Shown in pieces: positions 16,757 through 25,088 of a stretch of 64,000 nucleotides of DNA (the stretch's first letter is position 1; each line of letters begins with the position of its first letter). The translations under genes were made by a program, and so were the position numbers. Origin of the DNA: Spirochaetia bacterium (GTDB taxonomy: Bacteria > Spirochaetota > Spirochaetia > UBA9216). The DNA lies in contig OY776510.1 in the NCBI GenBank assembly GCA_963675665.1, forward strand, positions 672,001-736,000. The letters run 5' to 3'. The notes beneath the pieces were generated by a model. It did no database searches, had not been told where the DNA came from, and saw only the letters and a list, made by a program, of their open reading frames with translations.

Positions 16757-17803
16757 TTATTCAGTTGGAGCAGTTGTGCTTGTTTCTACGCTGAAACGTT
16801 CAACCAGTCTTTTCTTGTTTTCACCGGCCCACTGAAAATTGTAATCTATCAGTTTTGTATCCTTAATCGGCATGGCTTCCTCAGGCGGCATTGCATCCTT
16901 GTTTGTAAGAAACTGGAAAGATCCTACCGTTTTGCCCATTTCCTGAACATCTTTGGTTAAAACCCAGTCGATAAACATTTTTGCATTTTCCTGATCCGGT
17001 CCGTTCTTGAGGAGCGCTACTCCGCCAATCTCATAACCTGTACCTTCAACCGGCGCAGAAATAATTATGTCTTTATAACCTTCTTTTTTATACTTGATTG
17101 CATCATGAAGAAATGTGATTCCTATAGTTGCTTCGCCCAAACCGGCCATTCTTCCCGGGGCAGTACCTGATTTGGTATACTGTCTGACCTGGGGACTGAA
17201 TTTCTTGAAGTATTCCATTGCTTCATCTTCACCCACCATCTGAACCATGGTAGCAAGCATTGTATATGCCGTTCCTGATGATCCAGGATGTGCAACAACT
17301 ATTTCCTGGTTATATTCCGGTTTCAGGAAGTCCGACCATGATGTCGGCATTTTAAGACCTTTCTCTTTCAGTATTGCCTGATTTCCGACAAAACCGAGGT
17401 ATCCGATATAAATTCCGGTCCATATCCCGTTGGGGTCCTTAAACCCTTCCCTGATATTAACAGCTTCCGGTGAAATATACGGCTCAATGATTCCTTCTTC
17501 ATTTGCAGCAACAATTCCGTCAACCGGACCGCCGTACCATACAGACGCCGTCATATTGTCTTTTTCCGCTTTCAGACGTGCAAGAATTTCCCCGCTGCTC
17601 ATCCTGACAAACTCTGTTTTAATTCCGGTAAGAGCTTCAAATTCCTCGGCTATCATGGCTGCATGATCTTCCTGGAGTCCCGCGTAAAAAACCAGAGAAC
17701 CTTTGTCTTGCGCAGCCGAATCCTGAGATCCGCTGGCAAAAACAACTCCGGATGCAAGCACGGCCAGAAGAACAGAGAGAATGACAATTCTTTTTCCAAA
17801 CAT
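16757..17803 (-). CDS. ABC substrate-binding protein, AfuA-like (probable sugar-phosphate binding)
   Basis: Signal peptide ..VFASGS; WYGGP, PGSSGTAYT, YTKSG, FLHD, GTGYEIGG. Confidence 0.8.
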   Translation of the reverse strand: MFGKRIVILSVLLAVLASGVVFASGSQDSAAQDKGSLVFYAGLQEDHAAMIAEEFEALTGIKTEFVRMSSGEILARLKAEKDNMTASVWYGGPVDGIVAANEEGIIEPYISPEAVNIREGFKDPNGIWTGIYIGYLGFVGNQAILKEKGLKMPTSWSDFLKPEYNQEIVVAHPGSSGTAYTMLATMVQMVGEDEAMEYFKKFSPQVRQYTKSGTAPGRMAGLGEATIGITFLHDAIKYKKEGYKDIIISAPVEGTGYEIGGVALLKNGPDQENAKMFIDWVLTKDVQEMGKTVGSFQFLTNKDAMPPEEAMPIKDTKLIDYNFQWAGENKKRLVERFSVETSTTAPTE

Positions 17804-17876
17804 TTCAATTCCTCCTATTAATTATGAATAATACTATAAAACAGCTTTTTGCTGTTGAATACAGCGGGAACCCAAT

Positions 17877-17915
17877 TGTTACCAGACTGTTACAGCATTG
17901 TAACCATATTGTTAC
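17877..17915. promoter_or_regulatory. Four TGT(T/A)AC direct repeats at 11-bp period (OmpR/PhoB-type binding array)
   Basis: TGTTAC 17877, TGTTAC 17888, TGTAAC 17899, TGTTAC 17910, between the divergent SBP and histidine kinase genes. Confidence 0.75.
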
Positions 17916-17991
17916 TTGCGGAATTATGCTTTTCATGCAATTTTCTATAAATCAATTATTATTTATAGACAGCACAGGTATTAATAGTAAA

Positions 17992-19230
17992 ATGAAAAGC
18001 GATATGGCCAGCAGCAGCGGCAATAAAGCAAATATTGAATTCACCGTTAAAAAAATTAAACTCCTGCGATCCGGAGTTTTTACAGCAATTATTATCCTTT
18101 TTATGATTATCAACTCCGCAGAAAACCTGATTGTACTCCTGTCCATGACGGCAGGTTATTCAATAGTGGCAATTTTTCACGGCTACTGCGTTCTGAGCAG
18201 AAAGCAGCATCTTCTTAATTCCGCTGTATTGATTTTACCAGAGCTGATTATTTCCAACGCATTCCTTCTTTTTATAAACCCGGGTCTGCTGCTGCCTTTT
18301 ACATGTCTGCAGACTGTTGAACTTGCCGTTGAAAACCGCGGCCTTAAATATATCTATGCCCTGGCGGGAACCGCAGCAGCGGGAATGGCCGCCGGGTTTA
18401 TTATAAGAAACGAACAGAAATTCATCATTTATACCATTCCTGCAATATTAATTGTCATCCTGATATTCAAACTCATTCATCTGCAGGATTTCAGAAATAA
18501 AAATAAATATGAGTATATGAAAAAACTTGTTGATAACAAAAACAAGCTGTTATCCACACTTACCCATGAACTGAGAACGCCGCTGGCTGTAATAAAAACC
18601 TCAAACGAGCTGATCATGGAAGAACGGCCCGGCCCGATAAACGAAACACAAAGAACCCTGATTTTTTCATCACTCGAGAATACAAAACGGCTGAATTCCC
18701 TGGTTGAGAATATTCTTTCACAGGTGAAAGTTGAATTTGCGTGGTTTTCCATGAAACAGCAGCCGCTGGACATACGCAACCTTATTCGCAAAACAGCTGT
18801 CGATATAAACCCATATCTTGAAACCAAAAAGCAGCAGCTTAAATATAATTATCCGTCGCTTATGTCAAAAACCATAGGTGATAAACGATGGCTTGAACAG
18901 GTTTTGCTGAACCTTATCCACAACGGAAGCAAAAACAGCCCCGACAATTCGGAAATTACGATTTCGGTACAGGAAAATGAACAGTGCATAGTAATATCAG
19001 TCCACGACAGGGGCTCCGGAATAAAAAGCCGTGAAATCCCGAATGTATTCAACGAGTTTTACCAGTCGACTGATCCGGCGAAAAACCTTAACGAAGGCGC
19101 CGGCCTGGGGCTGACCATTGTAAGGGATATTATTGAGAAACATAAAGGCGAAGTATATATCAGTTCGCTTCCCCAAACAGGAACAACAGTTTCATTCACA
19201 TTGCCTATATACAAAGGAGTCTTTTTATGA
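17992..19230 (+). CDS. Membrane sensor histidine kinase
   Basis: Multi-TM N-terminus; HELRTPL H-box, NLIHNG, DRGSGI, GAGLGL; start uncertain (ORF track 17824 overlaps the regulatory repeats). Confidence 0.9.
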   Translation: MKSDMASSSGNKANIEFTVKKIKLLRSGVFTAIIILFMIINSAENLIVLLSMTAGYSIVAIFHGYCVLSRKQHLLNSAVLILPELIISNAFLLFINPGLLLPFTCLQTVELAVENRGLKYIYALAGTAAAGMAAGFIIRNEQKFIIYTIPAILIVILIFKLIHLQDFRNKNKYEYMKKLVDNKNKLLSTLTHELRTPLAVIKTSNELIMEERPGPINETQRTLIFSSLENTKRLNSLVENILSQVKVEFAWFSMKQQPLDIRNLIRKTAVDINPYLETKKQQLKYNYPSLMSKTIGDKRWLEQVLLNLIHNGSKNSPDNSEITISVQENEQCIVISVHDRGSGIKSREIPNVFNEFYQSTDPAKNLNEGAGLGLTIVRDIIEKHKGEVYISSLPQTGTTVSFTLPIYKGVFL

Positions 19231-19910
19231 AACAGACGGTTCTGATAATTGAAGATGATCCCCACCTTGTAACCATCCTTGATTTTCTAATGCGCGATGA
19301 AGGCTATAACGTCGTTACTTCACCGTCGGGAGAGGAGGGTCTTGCAATAATTAAAAGAGAAAAAATCGATTTGGTTATTCTTGATATTAACCTGCCCGGA
19401 ATGAACGGGCTTGACGTATGCAACAGAATAAAGATTTCAGAACAAATCCCGGTAATTTTTCTCAGCTGCAGAGACCAGGACAGCGACGTTATTTCCGGAC
19501 TGGAAAACGGCGCCGAGGATTATATGCGTAAACCCTTTAACCACAGGGAACTTGCGTTAAGAGTTAAAAAACTGCTTGAAAGATCATCCGATCAGAACAT
19601 GAAAACAGCAATAGAAACCGGTCAATTATTTATAAAAACCGATCGGGAAGAGGTTTACTTCAATTCGCAGGAGATCAAACTGACTCCCGTTGAGTATAAA
19701 CTTCTTGAAGTGCTGTTCAGAAGACTTGACTGGGTGCAGTCCTGGCAGGTCCTTCTGAAAGACGCCTGGGGCTATGAAGACTGGGAAGGGGGCAGGGAAA
19801 TGGTCAAGGTCAACATCAGGCGATTGCGAAAAAAAATTGAGCCGGATCCTTCTCAACCGGTTTATCTTCTGACCGAAAGAGGCAGGGGCTATAAACTGGC
19901 CAGACTATAG
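19227..19910 (+). CDS. OmpR/PhoB-family response regulator
   Basis: IEDD, LDINLP, KPF receiver; winged helix VNIRRLRKKIE..TERGRGY; 4-bp overlap with the kinase. Confidence 0.95.
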   Translation: MKQTVLIIEDDPHLVTILDFLMRDEGYNVVTSPSGEEGLAIIKREKIDLVILDINLPGMNGLDVCNRIKISEQIPVIFLSCRDQDSDVISGLENGAEDYMRKPFNHRELALRVKKLLERSSDQNMKTAIETGQLFIKTDREEVYFNSQEIKLTPVEYKLLEVLFRRLDWVQSWQVLLKDAWGYEDWEGGREMVKVNIRRLRKKIEPDPSQPVYLLTERGRGYKLARL

Positions 19911-20996
19911 ATGAACGCATATTTGACGCTTAAAAATCTTACGAAAATTTTCAATCCCGGCAGAGAAGACCAGGTGGCGGCCCTTAATCATTTCAGCATG
20001 ACGGTTAACAAGGGCGATTTTGTTACAATTCTGGGACCGTCGGGCTGCGGGAAAACTACAGCATTGCGGATGATTGCAGGGTTTGAAATTCCTACATCCG
20101 GAGAAATCTATATTGATAATAAAAACATCTCCAACCTGACTCCGGATAAGCGCAATACTGCAATGGTTTTTCAGAATTATGCCCTGTTTCCTCATCTTAC
20201 TGTATTTGAAAACATTGCTTACGGATTAAAAGTTCGGGGAGCGTCCAGGGATATTATTAAAAACGATGTTGCCATGGCCTGCCAGGTGGTAAATATGGTG
20301 GGCCTTGAAAAACGATACCCGGGAGAACTGTCGGGGGGGCAGCAGCAGCGTGTTGCTCTTGCTCGGGCCCTGGTAATGAAACCGAAAATGATTCTTTTCG
20401 ACGAACCCCTGTCAAATCTTGATTTGAAACTGAGACTGCAGACCAGAACCGAAATTAAACGGGTCCAGCAGATGCTCGGCATAACTGTACTTTATGTAAC
20501 CCATGATCAGTCCGAGGCGCTCAGTATGTCGGATAAAATAATAATAATGAATCACGGCAAGGTAGTTCAAACAGGAACACCCGAAGAAATCTACAACAAC
20601 CCGGCAAACGCTTTTGTAGCCGACTTTATCGGGAATGCAAATTTCATATCCGCCTATGCAGAAGAAATCGAAGGAAAAAGAATTACTGTCAGACTCGGAA
20701 AAAGAATCATCGTTGTTAAAAATGAAAACCCGGAAGAAGTTTTCAGCGAAGGCGAGGAAGTTTACCTTTCAATTAAGCCCGAAGCAATACAAATAAGCGG
20801 AAAAGAAACCGATTTTTCCGGTACAGTCCAGGTTAAATCATTTCTTGGTCCGCATACCGAATACAAGATCGAATTTGAGGGATCTTTTATAAATGTATAC
20901 CAGCACAATACAGGCGGAGACTCAAAAATTTATAAGCCGGGAGACAGGGTCTGTCTGAAATTCGATAAGGCGCTTTGTCACGTTTACAAGAGATAA
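19911..20996 (+). CDS. Second ABC ATP-binding protein, paralog of 13896-14969
   Basis: [27 protein letters not shown]; shares long stretches such as [13 protein letters not shown] and [13 protein letters not shown] with the first ATPase. Confidence 0.92.
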
Positions 20997-21039: not shown

Positions 21040-21106
21040 TTGACTATATAACATAACTATTATATATTACTAACAGTTGCCAGGCGCAACAGTTGCGCAA
21101 AACAAC
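21040..21106 (+). promoter_or_regulatory. sigma70 promoter and tandem palindromic operator of the marR operon
   Basis: TTGACT(21040-45)-17-TATATT(21063-68), then two GTTG-N7-CAAC sites (21076-21090, 21092-21106). Confidence 0.72.
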
Positions 21107-21121
21107 TTTACGGAGTAATAT

Positions 21122-21517
21122 GTGATAGAATTAATCCTTGAACTGAAACAGAAATGCCGATTCGACAGTGAGATTGGAGAATCTTTCAGCCTGAAAGAAC
21201 GCGAAGTAGCGTTTCTTTCAACGATTGCCGCCAATAAAAGCTTAACATCAAAGGAACTGTCTTCTCTTTCCGGCCTTTCTCCCTCCAGAAGCAGCCGTGT
21301 AATCTCTGCGCTATATGAAAAAGGCTATATTTTAATGGAGCATAACCGCTCCGATCGCAGACTGATCAATATCAGTCTTACACAAAAGGGTAAAGACTGT
21401 GTCGACGGTATTGAAAAAGAAAAAAGGAATTGTGAATTCGATTTACTGGCCGGACTGTCGGATGATGAAAAAGCAACCGTTAAAAAAGGCCTTAATATTC
21501 TTCTGAGGAAAATGTAA
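21122..21517 (+). CDS. MarR-family transcriptional regulator with three Cys
   Basis: wHTH ..SRVISALYEKGYI..SDRR..ISLTQKG; GTG start after GGAG. Confidence 0.9.
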   Translation: MIELILELKQKCRFDSEIGESFSLKEREVAFLSTIAANKSLTSKELSSLSGLSPSRSSRVISALYEKGYILMEHNRSDRRLINISLTQKGKDCVDGIEKEKRNCEFDLLAGLSDDEKATVKKGLNILLRKM

Positions 21518-21580
21518 TATTTTGACCTTTTTAGAGGAGAAATAATAAAATTGAATCTTCATATTCAATTTTAAGGGGGA

Positions 21581-22243
21581 ATGATGACTGAAACAAATAC
21601 GGTAAAGGCAATTAATATACGTTATTCGGATCTTGCCGAAACAAGCTGCTGCCTTTCATGCGGCGGAGCTGTAAATCACAGCAAGGTCTCGAAAGGTGAA
21701 ATTTGTGTGGATCTCGGCAGCGGACGGGGAACGGATGCAATCCGCATGGCTGAAGAAGTCGGAGCCGAAGGAATGGTCTACGGTCTGGATCTGTCGGACG
21801 GGATGATCAGGAAAGCTGAAAAAACCGCAAACCGGCTCGGTGTAGAGAACGTGAAATTTATTCAGACTGATCTGGAAAAAATGCCGTTAGGCGACAATTC
21901 GGCAGATCTTGTTATTTCAAACTGCGTCATTAATCACGCGGAAAATAAACAGAACGTCTGGAACGAGGTTTACAGGATTCTGAAGACCGGGGGACGGTTT
22001 GTAGTCAGCGATATCTACTCCAGTGAACCGGTGCCTGAAGAATACCGCACAGATCCGGAGGCTGTAGCTGAATGCTGGGCAGGATCCGTAACACGCGAAA
22101 TCTATCTCAGCCAGCTTGAAAAAGCCGGATTCAGGAATATCGAAATTCTTGAAGAGAGTAATCCCTATCCCAAGGGAAAAATAGAAGTCAGCAGCTGGAC
22201 GATACTCGGCTACAAATCCGGGTGTTGCTGTTGTAACACTTAA
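21581..22243 (+). CDS. SAM-dependent methyltransferase, arsenite methyltransferase (ArsM/AS3MT)-like
   Basis: SCCLSCG, VDLGSGRGTD, GLDLSDGM, DLVISNCVIN, RILKTGGRFVVSD, AECWAG; C-terminal GCCCC tail. Confidence 0.8.
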   Translation: MMTETNTVKAINIRYSDLAETSCCLSCGGAVNHSKVSKGEICVDLGSGRGTDAIRMAEEVGAEGMVYGLDLSDGMIRKAEKTANRLGVENVKFIQTDLEKMPLGDNSADLVISNCVINHAENKQNVWNEVYRILKTGGRFVVSDIYSSEPVPEEYRTDPEAVAECWAGSVTREIYLSQLEKAGFRNIEILEESNPYPKGKIEVSSWTILGYKSGCCCCNT

Positions 22244-22285
22244 AACCTTCCATGGAAGGCAAGAAATATTTTTAACGGAGGTTTC

Positions 22286-22381
22286 ATGAAATCACTGATC
22301 AAAAAGAAACCGGAAGGCAAAAAAGAAACAGCGCAATGTTGTGCAAAGCTTTCCAAGGTTGTGGCAGGCTGCCACGACTAG
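22286..22381 (+). CDS. Unannotated 31-aa Cys-rich peptide, putative RiPP precursor: MKSLIKKKPEGKKETAQCCAKLSKVVAGCHD
   Basis: Manual translation; strong GGAGG RBS just upstream of ATG; Lys-rich leader and Cys-containing core; immediately upstream of a radical SAM/SPASM gene. Confidence 0.8.
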   Translation: MKSLIKKKPEGKKETAQCCAKLSKVVAGCHD

Positions 22382-22389
22382 ACTCGTCC

Positions 22390-22425
22390 CCGGACCGGGG
22401 GATTTTCCACCGGTCCGGATTTTTA
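22390..22425 (+). terminator. GC-rich hairpin with T-tract after the peptide gene
   Basis: CCGGACCGG (22390-98) / CCGGTCCGG (22410-18) followed by ATTTTT. Confidence 0.7.
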
Positions 22426-22457
22426 CCTGACACATGGACAATAACGGAGAAAAACTG

Positions 22458-23774
22458 ATGCAGTTGTCGAAACATAATATAATATCCGAAATAAAAGACT
22501 CTGATGATTACTATATCATCAATCCTCTCAGTAAAAACGCTGATATTCTTGATGCCGATACAGCAAAAGCGCTGCTTAACGGTGAATTTACAAACCGTGA
22601 CGAGCTTATCGAAAAAGGCTATCTGGCAGATGCCGACGAGGAAGAGAAACGTTTTAAATCGGGGTATCTTGATTTTCTCGACAACCGTGAAGATGACGAA
22701 ATTCAGATATTTTATGTTCCGACCTATTCCTGTAACTTCAATTGTACTTACTGTTATCAGGAAGGTTACGGCAATGAACAATTCGGTGATGCCGGGGCGG
22801 TAACAGAGGCTTTTTTCAGATATGTTGATACTGAATTCGCAGGGAAGCGGAAATATATCACCGTTTTCGGCGGCGAGCCCCTTCTTCCGGACAATGTCAC
22901 ACGTAATAAAATCGAACTTATTATCAGGGAAGCAAATAAACGAAATCTGTCGCTGGCATTCGTAACAAACGGATGGGCTCTGGAAAGCTATGTCCCGCTT
23001 CTTAAAACCGCTTCTGTTCGTGAGGTTCAGGTGACCCTGGACGGCCCGGAAGAAGTTCATAATAAACGAAGACCGCTTCACAGCGGAGCAGGGACTTTTA
23101 AAAAGGTCGTTAACGGCATAAATTCCGCTCTTGAAGCCGGCATACCGATAAACCTTCGCGCTGTTATTGATAAAGAAAATCTTCCGCACCTTCCTGAACT
23201 GGCCCAATTCGCTGTAGATCAGGGCTGGACCGGCAGATCGAACTTTAAAACACAGCTGGGACGTAATTATGAACTGCATTATTGTCAGGAAAATGCAGCA
23301 AAACTCTACGACAGGCTTTCAATGTATGAAGATTTATACGAACTGATAAAGAATAATCCTGTCGTAATGGAGTTTCACCGGCCGGCATTTTCTATAAGCC
23401 GTTTTCTTTTTGACAACGGTGATATGCCTGACCCGCTGTATGATTCCTGCCCCGGATGTAAAACCGAATGGGCTTTTGATTACAGCGGAAACATTTTTTC
23501 ATGTACGGCCACTGTCGGTAAACCGGGGGAAAGCCTGGGAACCTTCTACCCGGAAATTACCACCAGGGAAGAAGCGATTGAGGCATGGCAGGAACGTGAT
23601 GTAACAACAATACCCGAATGCCTTAACTGCGAACTCAGGCTTGCGTGCGGAGGAGGTTGTGCATCAGCAGCAAAAAACAGAACAGGGACACTGAATTCGC
23701 CGGACTGCAGACCGGTAAAAGGTTTATTGACATTGGGTCTTTCGCTGTATTTCAACGAAGCGAAAGCAGAATAA
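22458..23774 (+). CDS. Radical SAM/SPASM-domain protein, putative peptide maturase
   Basis: CNFNCTYC, FGGEPLL, VTNG, QVTLDG; SPASM cysteines SCPGC..GNIFSC..ECLNCELRLACGGGC..DC; N-terminal RRE-like segment ending ELIEKGYL; start ATG 22458 after GGAG. Confidence 0.9.
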   Translation: MQLSKHNIISEIKDSDDYYIINPLSKNADILDADTAKALLNGEFTNRDELIEKGYLADADEEEKRFKSGYLDFLDNREDDEIQIFYVPTYSCNFNCTYCYQEGYGNEQFGDAGAVTEAFFRYVDTEFAGKRKYITVFGGEPLLPDNVTRNKIELIIREANKRNLSLAFVTNGWALESYVPLLKTASVREVQVTLDGPEEVHNKRRPLHSGAGTFKKVVNGINSALEAGIPINLRAVIDKENLPHLPELAQFAVDQGWTGRSNFKTQLGRNYELHYCQENAAKLYDRLSMYEDLYELIKNNPVVMEFHRPAFSISRFLFDNGDMPDPLYDSCPGCKTEWAFDYSGNIFSCTATVGKPGESLGTFYPEITTREEAIEAWQERDVTTIPECLNCELRLACGGGCASAAKNRTGTLNSPDCRPVKGLLTLGLSLYFNEAKAE

Positions 23775-23804: not shown

Positions 23805-25088
23805 ATGGCTGGAAAGATTAAGGAAATACAGGCAGCAGATTTTGAAAAAGAGGTGCTCGGTAAAGAACGCGTAGTAGTGGATTTTTATTCCACGGAATGT
23901 CCGCCCTGTGAAGCGCTGGCATCAAAATATGAAACGCTGAGCTACATTTACGGTGATGATATAAGCTTTATAAAAATATTCAGACAGGGAAACCGGGAAC
24001 TCTCCGAAAAGCTGGACGTCAGCGGCTCTCCTACGGTAATCTTTTACAAAAACGGAGAAAGAGTCGGAGACACTCTTACCGGCGGCATTAAACGCTCGGA
24101 TCTGATGAAAAACCTCGATGCGCTTCTGCCTGCAGAAAAAGCCGAAGAAATACACAACGAAATTAAACCTGTTGTAACCAACACCGATGTCGTTGTCCTG
24201 GGCGGAGGCCCGGCCGGCCTGACAGCAGGAATATATCTTGCGCAGGCGCATCTTAAAACAATACTGATAGACACCGCCCTTCCCGGGGGCTATGTAGCAA
24301 CAACCCACCAGGTATCAAATTACCCGGGCTTTATCGAACCTCAGCAGGGATTTATGCTCAGCCATTTCATGAGCGAACAGGCAAAAGCCAACGGCGTGGA
24401 ATTCAGAAGCGCGGTAGAAGTATCAAAAGTCGATCTGCGCAACAAGAGCCTTCTTGTAGACGGGTATGAAACAATTGAGGCAAAAAAGATAGTTATTGCG
24501 ACAGGCTCCAGACCGCGTCCGCTTGATATTCCGGGAGAAAAAGAGTATGCCGGGCAGGGCATAAGTTACTGCGCGACCTGTGACGGAAAATATTTTGAGG
24601 ACAAGGAAATAGTGGTAATTGGAGGCGGCAATTCAGCTATTGAAGAATCGCTGTTCCTGTCAAGGTTTGCAAAGAAAATAACCATTGTCCACCAGTTTGA
24701 TACCCTGCAGGCCAATAAAGAAGCGCAGAAAAAAATATTTGCCGACAAAAAAATCAATTTCATGTTTGAACATGAACCCCGTGAGTTTAAAAAATACGGA
24801 AACATGGACATGGGAGTAATTGTTGAAAACCTGAAAACCGGTGAAAAGTCAGAAGTACGAACCAACGGCATCTTTGTCTTTGTGGGTTTTATTCCGAACC
24901 TGGACGTTATTCATGACGAAATGGAGCTGGACCAATGGGGATACCTCAAAACCAGTGAGACTATGGAAACAAATCTGCCCGGGGTTTTCGCTGCAGGTGA
25001 CGTACGTACAAAACAGTACCGCCAGATAACAACCGCCGTATCAGACGGCACAATTGCGGCAATAACAATATCCAAAGAACTTACTTAA
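23805..25088 (+). CDS. Thioredoxin-thioredoxin reductase fusion (N-terminal Trx, C-terminal TrxB)
   Basis: VVDFYSTECPPC Trx domain; GGGPAG, NYPG, SYCATCDG, GGGNSA, FAAGDV, QITTAVSDG. Confidence 0.9.
   Translation: MAGKIKEIQAADFEKEVLGKERVVVDFYSTECPPCEALASKYETLSYIYGDDISFIKIFRQGNRELSEKLDVSGSPTVIFYKNGERVGDTLTGGIKRSDLMKNLDALLPAEKAEEIHNEIKPVVTNTDVVVLGGGPAGLTAGIYLAQAHLKTILIDTALPGGYVATTHQVSNYPGFIEPQQGFMLSHFMSEQAKANGVEFRSAVEVSKVDLRNKSLLVDGYETIEAKKIVIATGSRPRPLDIPGEKEYAGQGISYCATCDGKYFEDKEIVVIGGGNSAIEESLFLSRFAKKITIVHQFDTLQANKEAQKKIFADKKINFMFEHEPREFKKYGNMDMGVIVENLKTGEKSEVRTNGIFVFVGFIPNLDVIHDEMELDQWGYLKTSETMETNLPGVFAAGDVRTKQYRQITTAVSDGTIAAITISKELT

Follow-up and report, generated by a model that had tools for sequence, protein, structure and literature searches.

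A short, strongly conserved peptide gene, probable substrate of an adjacent radical SAM/SPASM enzyme, in a widespread bacterial cassette

On the forward strand of the window, the whole 64,000-nucleotide stretch of spirochaete DNA that was analysed, lies a 31-codon frame that comparison of homologous loci confirms as a genuine and very strongly conserved gene, and that very probably encodes the substrate peptide of the adjacent radical SAM (rSAM)/SPASM enzyme, operating in the way proposed below. Most likely, this peptide would be crosslinked by the rSAM enzyme and remain in the cell as a thiol peptide working with a miniature ArsM-like methyltransferase (mini-ArsM) and a thioredoxin fused to thioredoxin reductase (Trx-TrxR), by a chemistry that we infer. 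The cassette of peptide, rSAM, mini-ArsM and Trx-TrxR is a widespread bacterial system, on which searches of open-access text found nothing. By kind it belongs to rSAM/SPASM peptide modification, and the possibility that it is a peptide-derived cofactor or carrier system is a real one.

A short gene and its conservation

The genes of the window follow the order MarR, methyltransferase, peptide, rSAM and Trx-TrxR, and then lspA, which is convergent on the other strand. The features are the following.

21040-21068, + strand: sigma-70-like promoter TTGACT-17-TATATT, 5' of the MarR gene (consensus match only)
21087-21097, no strand assigned: perfect palindrome GCAAC-A-GTTGC, between the promoter-like site and the marR start
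21122-21517, + strand: MarR-family regulator, 131 aa (PF01047, E 7.6e-8)
21522-21551, + strand: sigma-70-like promoter TTGACC-18-TAAAAT, 5' of the methyltransferase gene (consensus match only)
21581-22243, + strand: miniature ArsM-like SAM methyltransferase, 220 aa (PF13847, E 1e-34)
22277-22281, + strand: Shine-Dalgarno GGAGG, 4 nt 5' of the peptide-gene ATG
22286-22381, + strand: peptide gene, 31 aa, with an MKSLIKKK recognition end, a Lys-rich linker and the invariant core AQCCAKxSxxxxGCHD
22390-22424, + strand: 9-bp GC-rich hairpin (CCGGACCGG / CCGGTCCGG) followed by ATTTTT, terminator- or attenuator-like, between the peptide and rSAM genes
22458-23774, + strand: rSAM/SPASM peptide maturase, 438 aa (PF04055, E 3e-21), with GGAG 5' of its ATG
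23805-25088, + strand: thioredoxin (CPPC) fused to thioredoxin reductase (CATC), 427 aa (PF00085, PF07992)

The peptide frame opens with the ATG at 22286, closes with the TAG at 22379-22381 and yields MKSLIKKKPEGKKETAQCCAKLSKVVAGCHD. An earlier note on this DNA had pointed to the GGAGG Shine-Dalgarno, a Lys-rich N-terminal half (lysine makes up six of the first 13 residues), the pair C18-C19 and the ending G28-C29-H30-D31-stop, all of which read as it described. Taken by itself, a 31-codon frame is not above chance, since 118 frames of at least 25 aa are found within the 12 kb around it. The note's remark that the peptide had been missed by the ORF track agrees with an exact look-up, in which the window's peptide was absent from a collection of 15 billion proteins; the gene is therefore uncalled here.

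Homologues of the rSAM enzyme number in the thousands, two of which (P0073 and P0095) bear the source names Marispirochaeta aestuarii and Spirochaeta isovalerica, and an alignment-driven scan with one genome per species confirmed at least 551 loci, the best 80 of which were taken. They belong to Spirochaetota, Bacteroidota and Ignavibacteriota, plus one Syntrophomonadaceae and one Margulisbacteria MAG, and together with the window they make up 81 cassettes. Exactly one frame of the form QCCA..GCHD-stop is present in each of these 80 (the best of at least 551), just 5' of the rSAM gene and on the same strand. This is precisely the CC-x8-GCHD terminus that the note had proposed to look for beside homologous rSAM genes, and the equivalent small frame beside the homologous maturase in all 80 loci supports its view of a hidden precursor peptide of the adjacent rSAM.

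At the DNA level the 81 peptide genes represent 78 different sequences, which encode 72 different peptides, with lengths of 31 aa (43 cassettes), 32 (17), 35 (13), 30 (4), 33 (3) and 38 (1). Eleven of the 16 core residues are invariant (A16, Q17, C18, C19, A20, K21, S23, G28, C29, H30 and D31) over 75 distinct nucleotide versions of the core. Synonymous codons vary freely: alanine appears with four codons, serine with both TCN and AGY, Leu4 with six, and cysteine, glutamine, lysine, histidine, aspartate and glycine with all of theirs. Because core residues stay fixed while synonymous codons drift, the alignment argues that purifying selection acts on the peptide as a protein. A chance frame is ruled out by the conservation in 80 of 80 loci together with this codon pattern. 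A Shine-Dalgarno-like AGGAGG precedes the peptide gene in spirochaete, Ignavibacteria and Firmicute loci and is missing in the Bacteroidales ones, as is expected for the phylum of the latter.

Judged from these alignments, the peptide has a leader/linker/core layout in three parts: a conserved MKSL..KK N-terminus, a variable linker of about 8-35 residues and an invariant C-terminal core of 16 residues. M1 and L4 are invariant together with the core, and K7 nearly so. A profile of the 72 peptides retrieved 135 cluster representatives at E ≤ 1e-3 among 1.84 billion, and 28 of them, picked as long or atypical, were inspected. In these relatives the MKSL(I/V/T) motif and the core stay, and the linker grows to some 35 unconserved residues; rare wider variants end in GCHN or GCRD or replace S23 by Ala, so that H30 and D31 vary in a few.

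Some arrangements depart from this plan. Two loci, L041 (3817-3915) and L091 (2058-2180, minus strand), carry in the linker a second partial core copy (..AAQCCATAQCCAK.. and ..NDCCAKADSSVAQCCAK.., respectively), which suggests local duplication of a CCA(K) unit. A database protein of 243 aa, P0280, contains four tandem repeats weakly resembling the core (ATCCVKTPTVSSGCRD; E 4e-5) and may be a frame read through repeated DNA.

As for the spread of the gene, a strict peptide pattern occurred in 38 of 401 sampled Spirochaetota genomes and its reversed-pattern control in none. There is one peptide copy per genome, and the window's own genome has a single cassette. Names are scarce: five of ten peptides submitted to the exact look-up were in the protein collection, the named ones as 'hypothetical protein'; five peptide variants had no NCBIfam match at E ≤ 10, and none was found in Pfam; and the ESM Atlas gave unnamed 'hypothetical protein' clusters alone, with scores of at most 0.87, under the 0.9 level.

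The enzymes of the cassette and their genomic setting

For the rSAM gene, a start at 22434 was rejected in favour of the ATG at 22458, where the homologues begin. The CX3CX2C motif of the radical SAM superfamily, here C92-NFN-C96-TY-C99, is invariant in 60 sequences, and so are the seven cysteines of the SPASM pattern (C331-x12-G344-x4-C349, C388-x2-C391-x5-C397-x3-C401 and C417), while the Pfam SPASM model gave no match to the enzyme at E ≤ 0.01. An AlphaFold2 model of the protein (mean pLDDT 87.8, pTM 0.86) begins with strands at 8-11, 18-22 and 27-31, followed by helices at 33-40, 47-52 and 59-77, with a pLDDT of 93-97, an order of elements like that of the PqqD-like domain through which RRE-dependent maturases bind the leader. 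Among solved structures CteB comes first both in sequence (E 2.3e-17) and in fold (Foldseek E 1.6e-17, TM 0.66). In the structural alignment with CteB (5wgg; Z 26.4, rmsd 3.8, 394 residues, 18% identity) model residues 4-435 lie on residues 1-450 of the chain, and because the alignment has this extent the N-terminal domain matches the recognition domain of CteB. The predicted structure is thus of CteB-type architecture with a putative N-terminal recognition domain. Among the rSAM structures, which overall score Z 15-26, anSME and ChlB come next at Z 24, over the core only, and TigE reaches Z 21 at full length; the alignments to CteB and anSME run through residues 435-438 of the model.

No NCBIfam peptide-maturase model reaches its cut-off with this enzyme. 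The best matches, TIGR04463 (129.3 bits vs a cut-off of 525) and CefB (NF038107; 128.6 vs 600), both fall far short, as does the geopeptide maturase model (123 bits vs 400), and a modification chemistry can therefore not be transferred from a family.

The methyltransferase carries an N-terminal SCCLSCGG and the motifs SNC115VIN and EC165WAG, and its C-terminal tail contains CCCC (22223-22234). Among NCBIfam models it matches best the arsenite methyltransferase NF008823, with 199.3 bits below the cut-off of 263 and over positions 59-233 of a 272-position profile, and its best structural matches are solved ArsM structures (E 1e-22). C27, C115 and C165 align to residues 72, 174 and 224 of 4fr0, the ArsM cysteine set, which we take from ArsM studies to be responsible for As(III) binding and for the disulfide reduced by thioredoxin. 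These three residues, along with C23 and C24, are invariant in 69 orthologues, and C42 is invariant or nearly so. The Cys-rich tail (CxC, CCC or CCCC) contains two to four cysteines in 54 of the 69, one in three and none in 12.

A whole-genome search of the window's genome gave no ArsM above the NF008823 cut-off. Within the Spirochaetota sample, mini-ArsM at 46% identity or more is present in 38 of the 401 genomes, 37 of which are common with the peptide-pattern set. Nine further genomes have weaker ArsM-like matches alone (37-43% identity), mostly in frames of 263-311 aa, and five cassette-bearing genomes also have a separate, weaker and longer ArsM-like gene. Since 37 genomes are shared and the longer ArsM-like genes are separate, mini-ArsM is, on its distribution, best regarded as a cassette-specific paralogue.

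Two genomes fall outside the 37 that have both. In G040 (locus L090, contig C132, 360-1288) an intact mini-ArsM stands directly before what is left of the reductase, 41 aa of its C-terminus, and the genes for peptide and rSAM are deleted; because only this remnant follows the methyltransferase, it is a decayed cassette. G119 has peptide, rSAM and reductase with a diverged methyltransferase of 201 aa. In a further genome, G057 (contig C75, 8239-10502), the mini-ArsM match and the peptide are on opposite strands, some 1.6 kb apart; the match falls inside an open frame of 447 aa and could be a rearranged or fused form.

The fused Trx-TrxR scores 322.7 bits with TIGR01292 (cut-off 343.45) and is well above the cut-offs of PF00085 and PF07992. 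By tblastn, the methyltransferase and the Trx-TrxR were each found in 78 of the 80 loci. The two loci that miss the former have 130 and 165 bases 5' of the peptide; of those that miss the latter, one is at a contig edge and the other, L025, has no such gene within 4 kb. Three of these four missing flanking genes thus belong to loci cut by a contig end. In four Ignavibacteria-type loci the Trx-TrxR stands upstream of the methyltransferase. The cassette of mini-ArsM, peptide, rSAM and Trx-TrxR is nearly fixed.

With tblastn, only 16 of the 80 loci, mostly of spirochaetes, showed a MarR homologue 5' of the methyltransferase; Bacteroidales loci have a sigma-54 response regulator instead (12 loci), and another recurrent neighbour is a histidine kinase, present in 21 of the 81 cassettes including that of the window. 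Two copies of AACAGTTGC fall within 21074-21097, the first at 21074-21082 and the second inside the palindrome, and this palindrome region is a likely candidate for the MarR operator. As a candidate target sequence of MarR we note GCAACAGTTGC.

The hairpin at 22390-22424 has a folding energy of -25.8 kcal/mol (z -3.3), and none of 200 shuffled sequences was as stable. It is absent from the output of a consensus terminator scan, the loop being longer than that scan allows. Among the 81 cassettes, 61 have a spacer of at least 25 nt between the peptide and rSAM genes, and in 48 of these z is below -2, as in 48 the minimum free energy is -15 or lower, the sequences being unrelated; in the other 20 the spacer is at most 14 nt, hence no hairpin.

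Further out, the recurrent neighbours are DUF1847 (21 loci), YceI (14), DUF302 (11), DUF6132 (11) and an SQR-like flavoprotein (8), and also OsmC, a NapH-like ferredoxin and HlyIII. With their leaning towards thiols, peroxide and sulfide, these accessory genes suggest a redox or soft-element role. Peptidases, proteases, ABC exporters and immunity genes are lacking among the recurrent neighbours of the 80 loci, so that the statement of the earlier note that the operon lacks a peptidase or exporter extends to these neighbours; nor does any arsR, acr3, arsB, arsenic pump or arsC recur there.

Five Bacteroidales loci (L027, L050, L054, L060 and L071) are extended, upstream by OsmC, an unnamed 116-aa gene, two extra TrxR-like genes and DUF6132, and downstream by DUF302, an SQR/'N-term-to-SelD'-like flavoprotein and a NapH-like ferredoxin, a composition that hints at sulfide, selenium or peroxide chemistry. 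In the window itself, a PhnS2-like solute-binding protein (minus strand), a histidine kinase, an OmpR-type response regulator and a PhnT2-like ABC ATPase are encoded upstream, at 16757-20996. This group is probably unrelated to the cassette, because homologues of some of its members recur solely in the closest spirochaete loci. A part in anti-phage defence was rejected: PADLOC gave generic domain matches (the mad2 methyltransferase domain, the pVip rSAM core and CARF-HTH) and no system.

A proposed mechanism and the readings that compete with it

Transcription of the operon would start at the promoter-like site 5' of the methyltransferase gene, and the hairpin behind the peptide stop codon would allow the peptide to outnumber the enzymes. 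The MKSL end of the peptide would dock on the putative recognition domain of the rSAM enzyme, the linker delivering the core to the active site, where the enzyme would abstract a hydrogen and form a thioether between at least one of C18, C19 and C29 and a carbon close by, C29 with D31 being one example. The product would then remain intracellular and serve the ArsM-type methyltransferase as a dedicated thiol peptide, whether partner, carrier or cofactor, while disulfides would be re-reduced by the fused Trx-TrxR at the expense of NAD(P)H. Candidates for the methyl acceptor are As(III) or another thiophilic metalloid, a species of sulfur or selenium, and the peptide itself.

The thioether crosslinking of cysteines by rSAM enzymes has precedents in CteB, PapB and QhpD. 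For the present enzyme it is proposed by analogy with a single protein, the nearest solved relative CteB at 18% identity, and anSME, ChlB and TigE, whose chemistry is other than thioether formation, score nearly as well. The product is probably intracellular, given that proteases and exporters do not recur and that the core shows almost no variation between phyla; a role inside the cell or like that of a cofactor, such as the earlier note suggested, would fit this cross-phylum invariance of the core. In its most developed form the proposal is of a peptide-derived thiol cofactor or carrier, in which the rSAM enzyme would shape the core, the ArsM-type enzyme would act on the peptide or on thiol-held As, Sb, Se, Te or sulfide, and the Trx-TrxR would close the redox cycle; this form we hold tentatively, as one possibility.

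A doubtful alternative is that the peptide serves as a three-thiol metalloid carrier, in which C18, C19 and C29 would bind As(III) or a similar soft metalloid and present it to mini-ArsM, replacing glutathione in these anaerobes. As part of this reading, the thiols would not be consumed by the rSAM enzyme, which might, for instance, make a carbon-carbon or carbon-metalloid bond or carry out an epimerisation instead. A vicinal cysteine pair with a third cysteine resembles the As(III) sites of ArsD and ArsR, and a dedicated Trx-TrxR fits the disulfide step of ArsM catalysis. Furthermore, the methyltransferase keeps the cysteines aligned with residues 72, 174 and 224 of ArsM in addition to an N-terminal CC pair, the mini-ArsM clade is found only with the peptide, and the five cassette-bearing genomes mentioned above also have their separate, longer ArsM-like gene. 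Nevertheless, an arsenic role is weakened by the lack of ars genes among the recurrent neighbours, which speaks against arsenic detoxification in its plain form: arsR, the pump genes acr3 and arsB, and arsC do not recur in the 80 loci, whose regulators are of the MarR or sigma-54 two-component type. Moreover, the match to NF008823 is below the cut-off, and the nearest relative of the rSAM enzyme makes Cys thioethers.

It is improbable that the product is an ordinary secreted RiPP, that is, a ranthipeptide-type antimicrobial or signal, tailored by the methyltransferase and exported and cleaved by proteins encoded elsewhere. The leader/core layout, the rSAM/SPASM enzyme with its putative RRE and the hairpin that follows the precursor gene, a feature of many RiPP operons, would be in keeping with such a product. 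However, secreted RiPPs have variable cores, whereas this one is close to invariant in Spirochaetota, Bacteroidota and Firmicutes alike; the 80 loci have no recurrent protease, ABC exporter or immunity gene, each genome has one copy, and the methyltransferase keeps the thiol set of ArsM.

Finally, a functionless leader peptide, whose Cys codons together with the terminator hairpin would form an attenuator sensing cysteine or translation status, is suggested by a short frame placed directly before a hairpin and T-run and ahead of enzyme genes, but is scarcely credible and was rejected, as the non-Cys residues A, Q, A, K, S, G, H and D never change in the protein while their synonymous codons drift, conservation extends to the N-terminal MKSL motif, and 20 of the 81 cassettes, with their short spacers, have no hairpin.

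We thus return to the crosslinked intracellular thiol peptide as the preferred reading. Known rSAM/SPASM enzymes that act on Cys-rich peptides are mostly makers of variable secreted products. Here a 16-residue core barely changes over at least four phyla, has no protease or exporter with it, and is locked to an ArsM-type methyltransferase and to a disulfide reductase of its own, a pattern of the kind shown by peptide-derived cofactors or enzyme partners. This is a large family: at least 551 genome loci encode the rSAM enzyme, and about one in ten of the sampled Spirochaetota genomes carries the peptide, which is unnamed in Pfam and NCBIfam and often uncalled as a gene. Its study could reveal a thiol cofactor, or a route of metalloid or chalcogen methylation, in anoxic habitats, and annotators would gain a model for a commonly missed gene.

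Comparison with known systems

The enzyme CteB and its peptide CteA (SCIFF, thermocellin) provide the best relative in both sequence and fold, sharing the rSAM core, the SPASM region and, as predicted, the N-terminal recognition domain, and CteB likewise acts on a Cys-containing peptide encoded beside it. The differences are nonetheless marked: the rSAM enzyme described here scores 76.2 bits with TIGR03974, the model of the SCIFF maturase ScfB, against a cut-off of 425, and the precursor has three cysteines in place of the six-Cys-in-45 of SCIFF and matches no SCIFF model. SCIFF systems are not known to have a fixed ArsM-like methyltransferase or Trx-TrxR.

PapB, which makes the Cys-to-Asp thioethers of freyrasin in CX3D repeats, is also an rSAM/SPASM enzyme, and C29-H-D31 could be analogous to its donor/acceptor pair. 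In contrast to PapB, however, the spacing here is CX1D in a single copy, the score with NF047865 is 102.6 bits vs a cut-off of 340, and the N-terminal part is missing from the alignment, which starts at residue 98. With its three cysteines, its C-H-D end and an rSAM enzyme far below the ScfB and PapB cut-offs, the peptide fits neither the SCIFF nor the CX3D pattern, as the earlier note had remarked.

In turn, QhpD is an rSAM/SPASM enzyme that thioether-crosslinks QhpC, the small subunit of quinohemoprotein amine dehydrogenase, which stays as a functional part of that enzyme and is not an antibiotic. The match to its model TIGR03906 (54 bits vs 453) covers the rSAM core only, and the present cassette has no dehydrogenase partner.

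The likeness to ArsM/AS3MT working with thioredoxin and thioredoxin reductase lies in the retained equivalents of Cys 72, 174 and 224 and in the disulfide reductase encoded alongside. Unlike those enzymes, the protein described here has 220 aa, vs 321-387 aa in the solved chains, with the C-terminal domain absent; it is below the NF008823 cut-off, and it is tied to the peptide and the rSAM enzyme and not to ars genes.

Mycofactocin (MftA/MftC) and PQQ (PqqA/PqqE) resemble the system in a small, highly conserved peptide with its reactive residues at the extreme C-terminus and in an rSAM/SPASM enzyme, and would also share with it the RRE dependence of that enzyme and an intracellular product. 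The mycofactocin and PQQ systems include peptidases (MftE, PqqF/G), whereas none recurs here; the core here is thiol-based, and the score with the MftC model TIGR03962 is 58.2 bits vs 265. If the cofactor or carrier reading is true, the cassette would stand next to PQQ and mycofactocin as a further class, or would link a ribosomal peptide to metalloid methylation for the first time.
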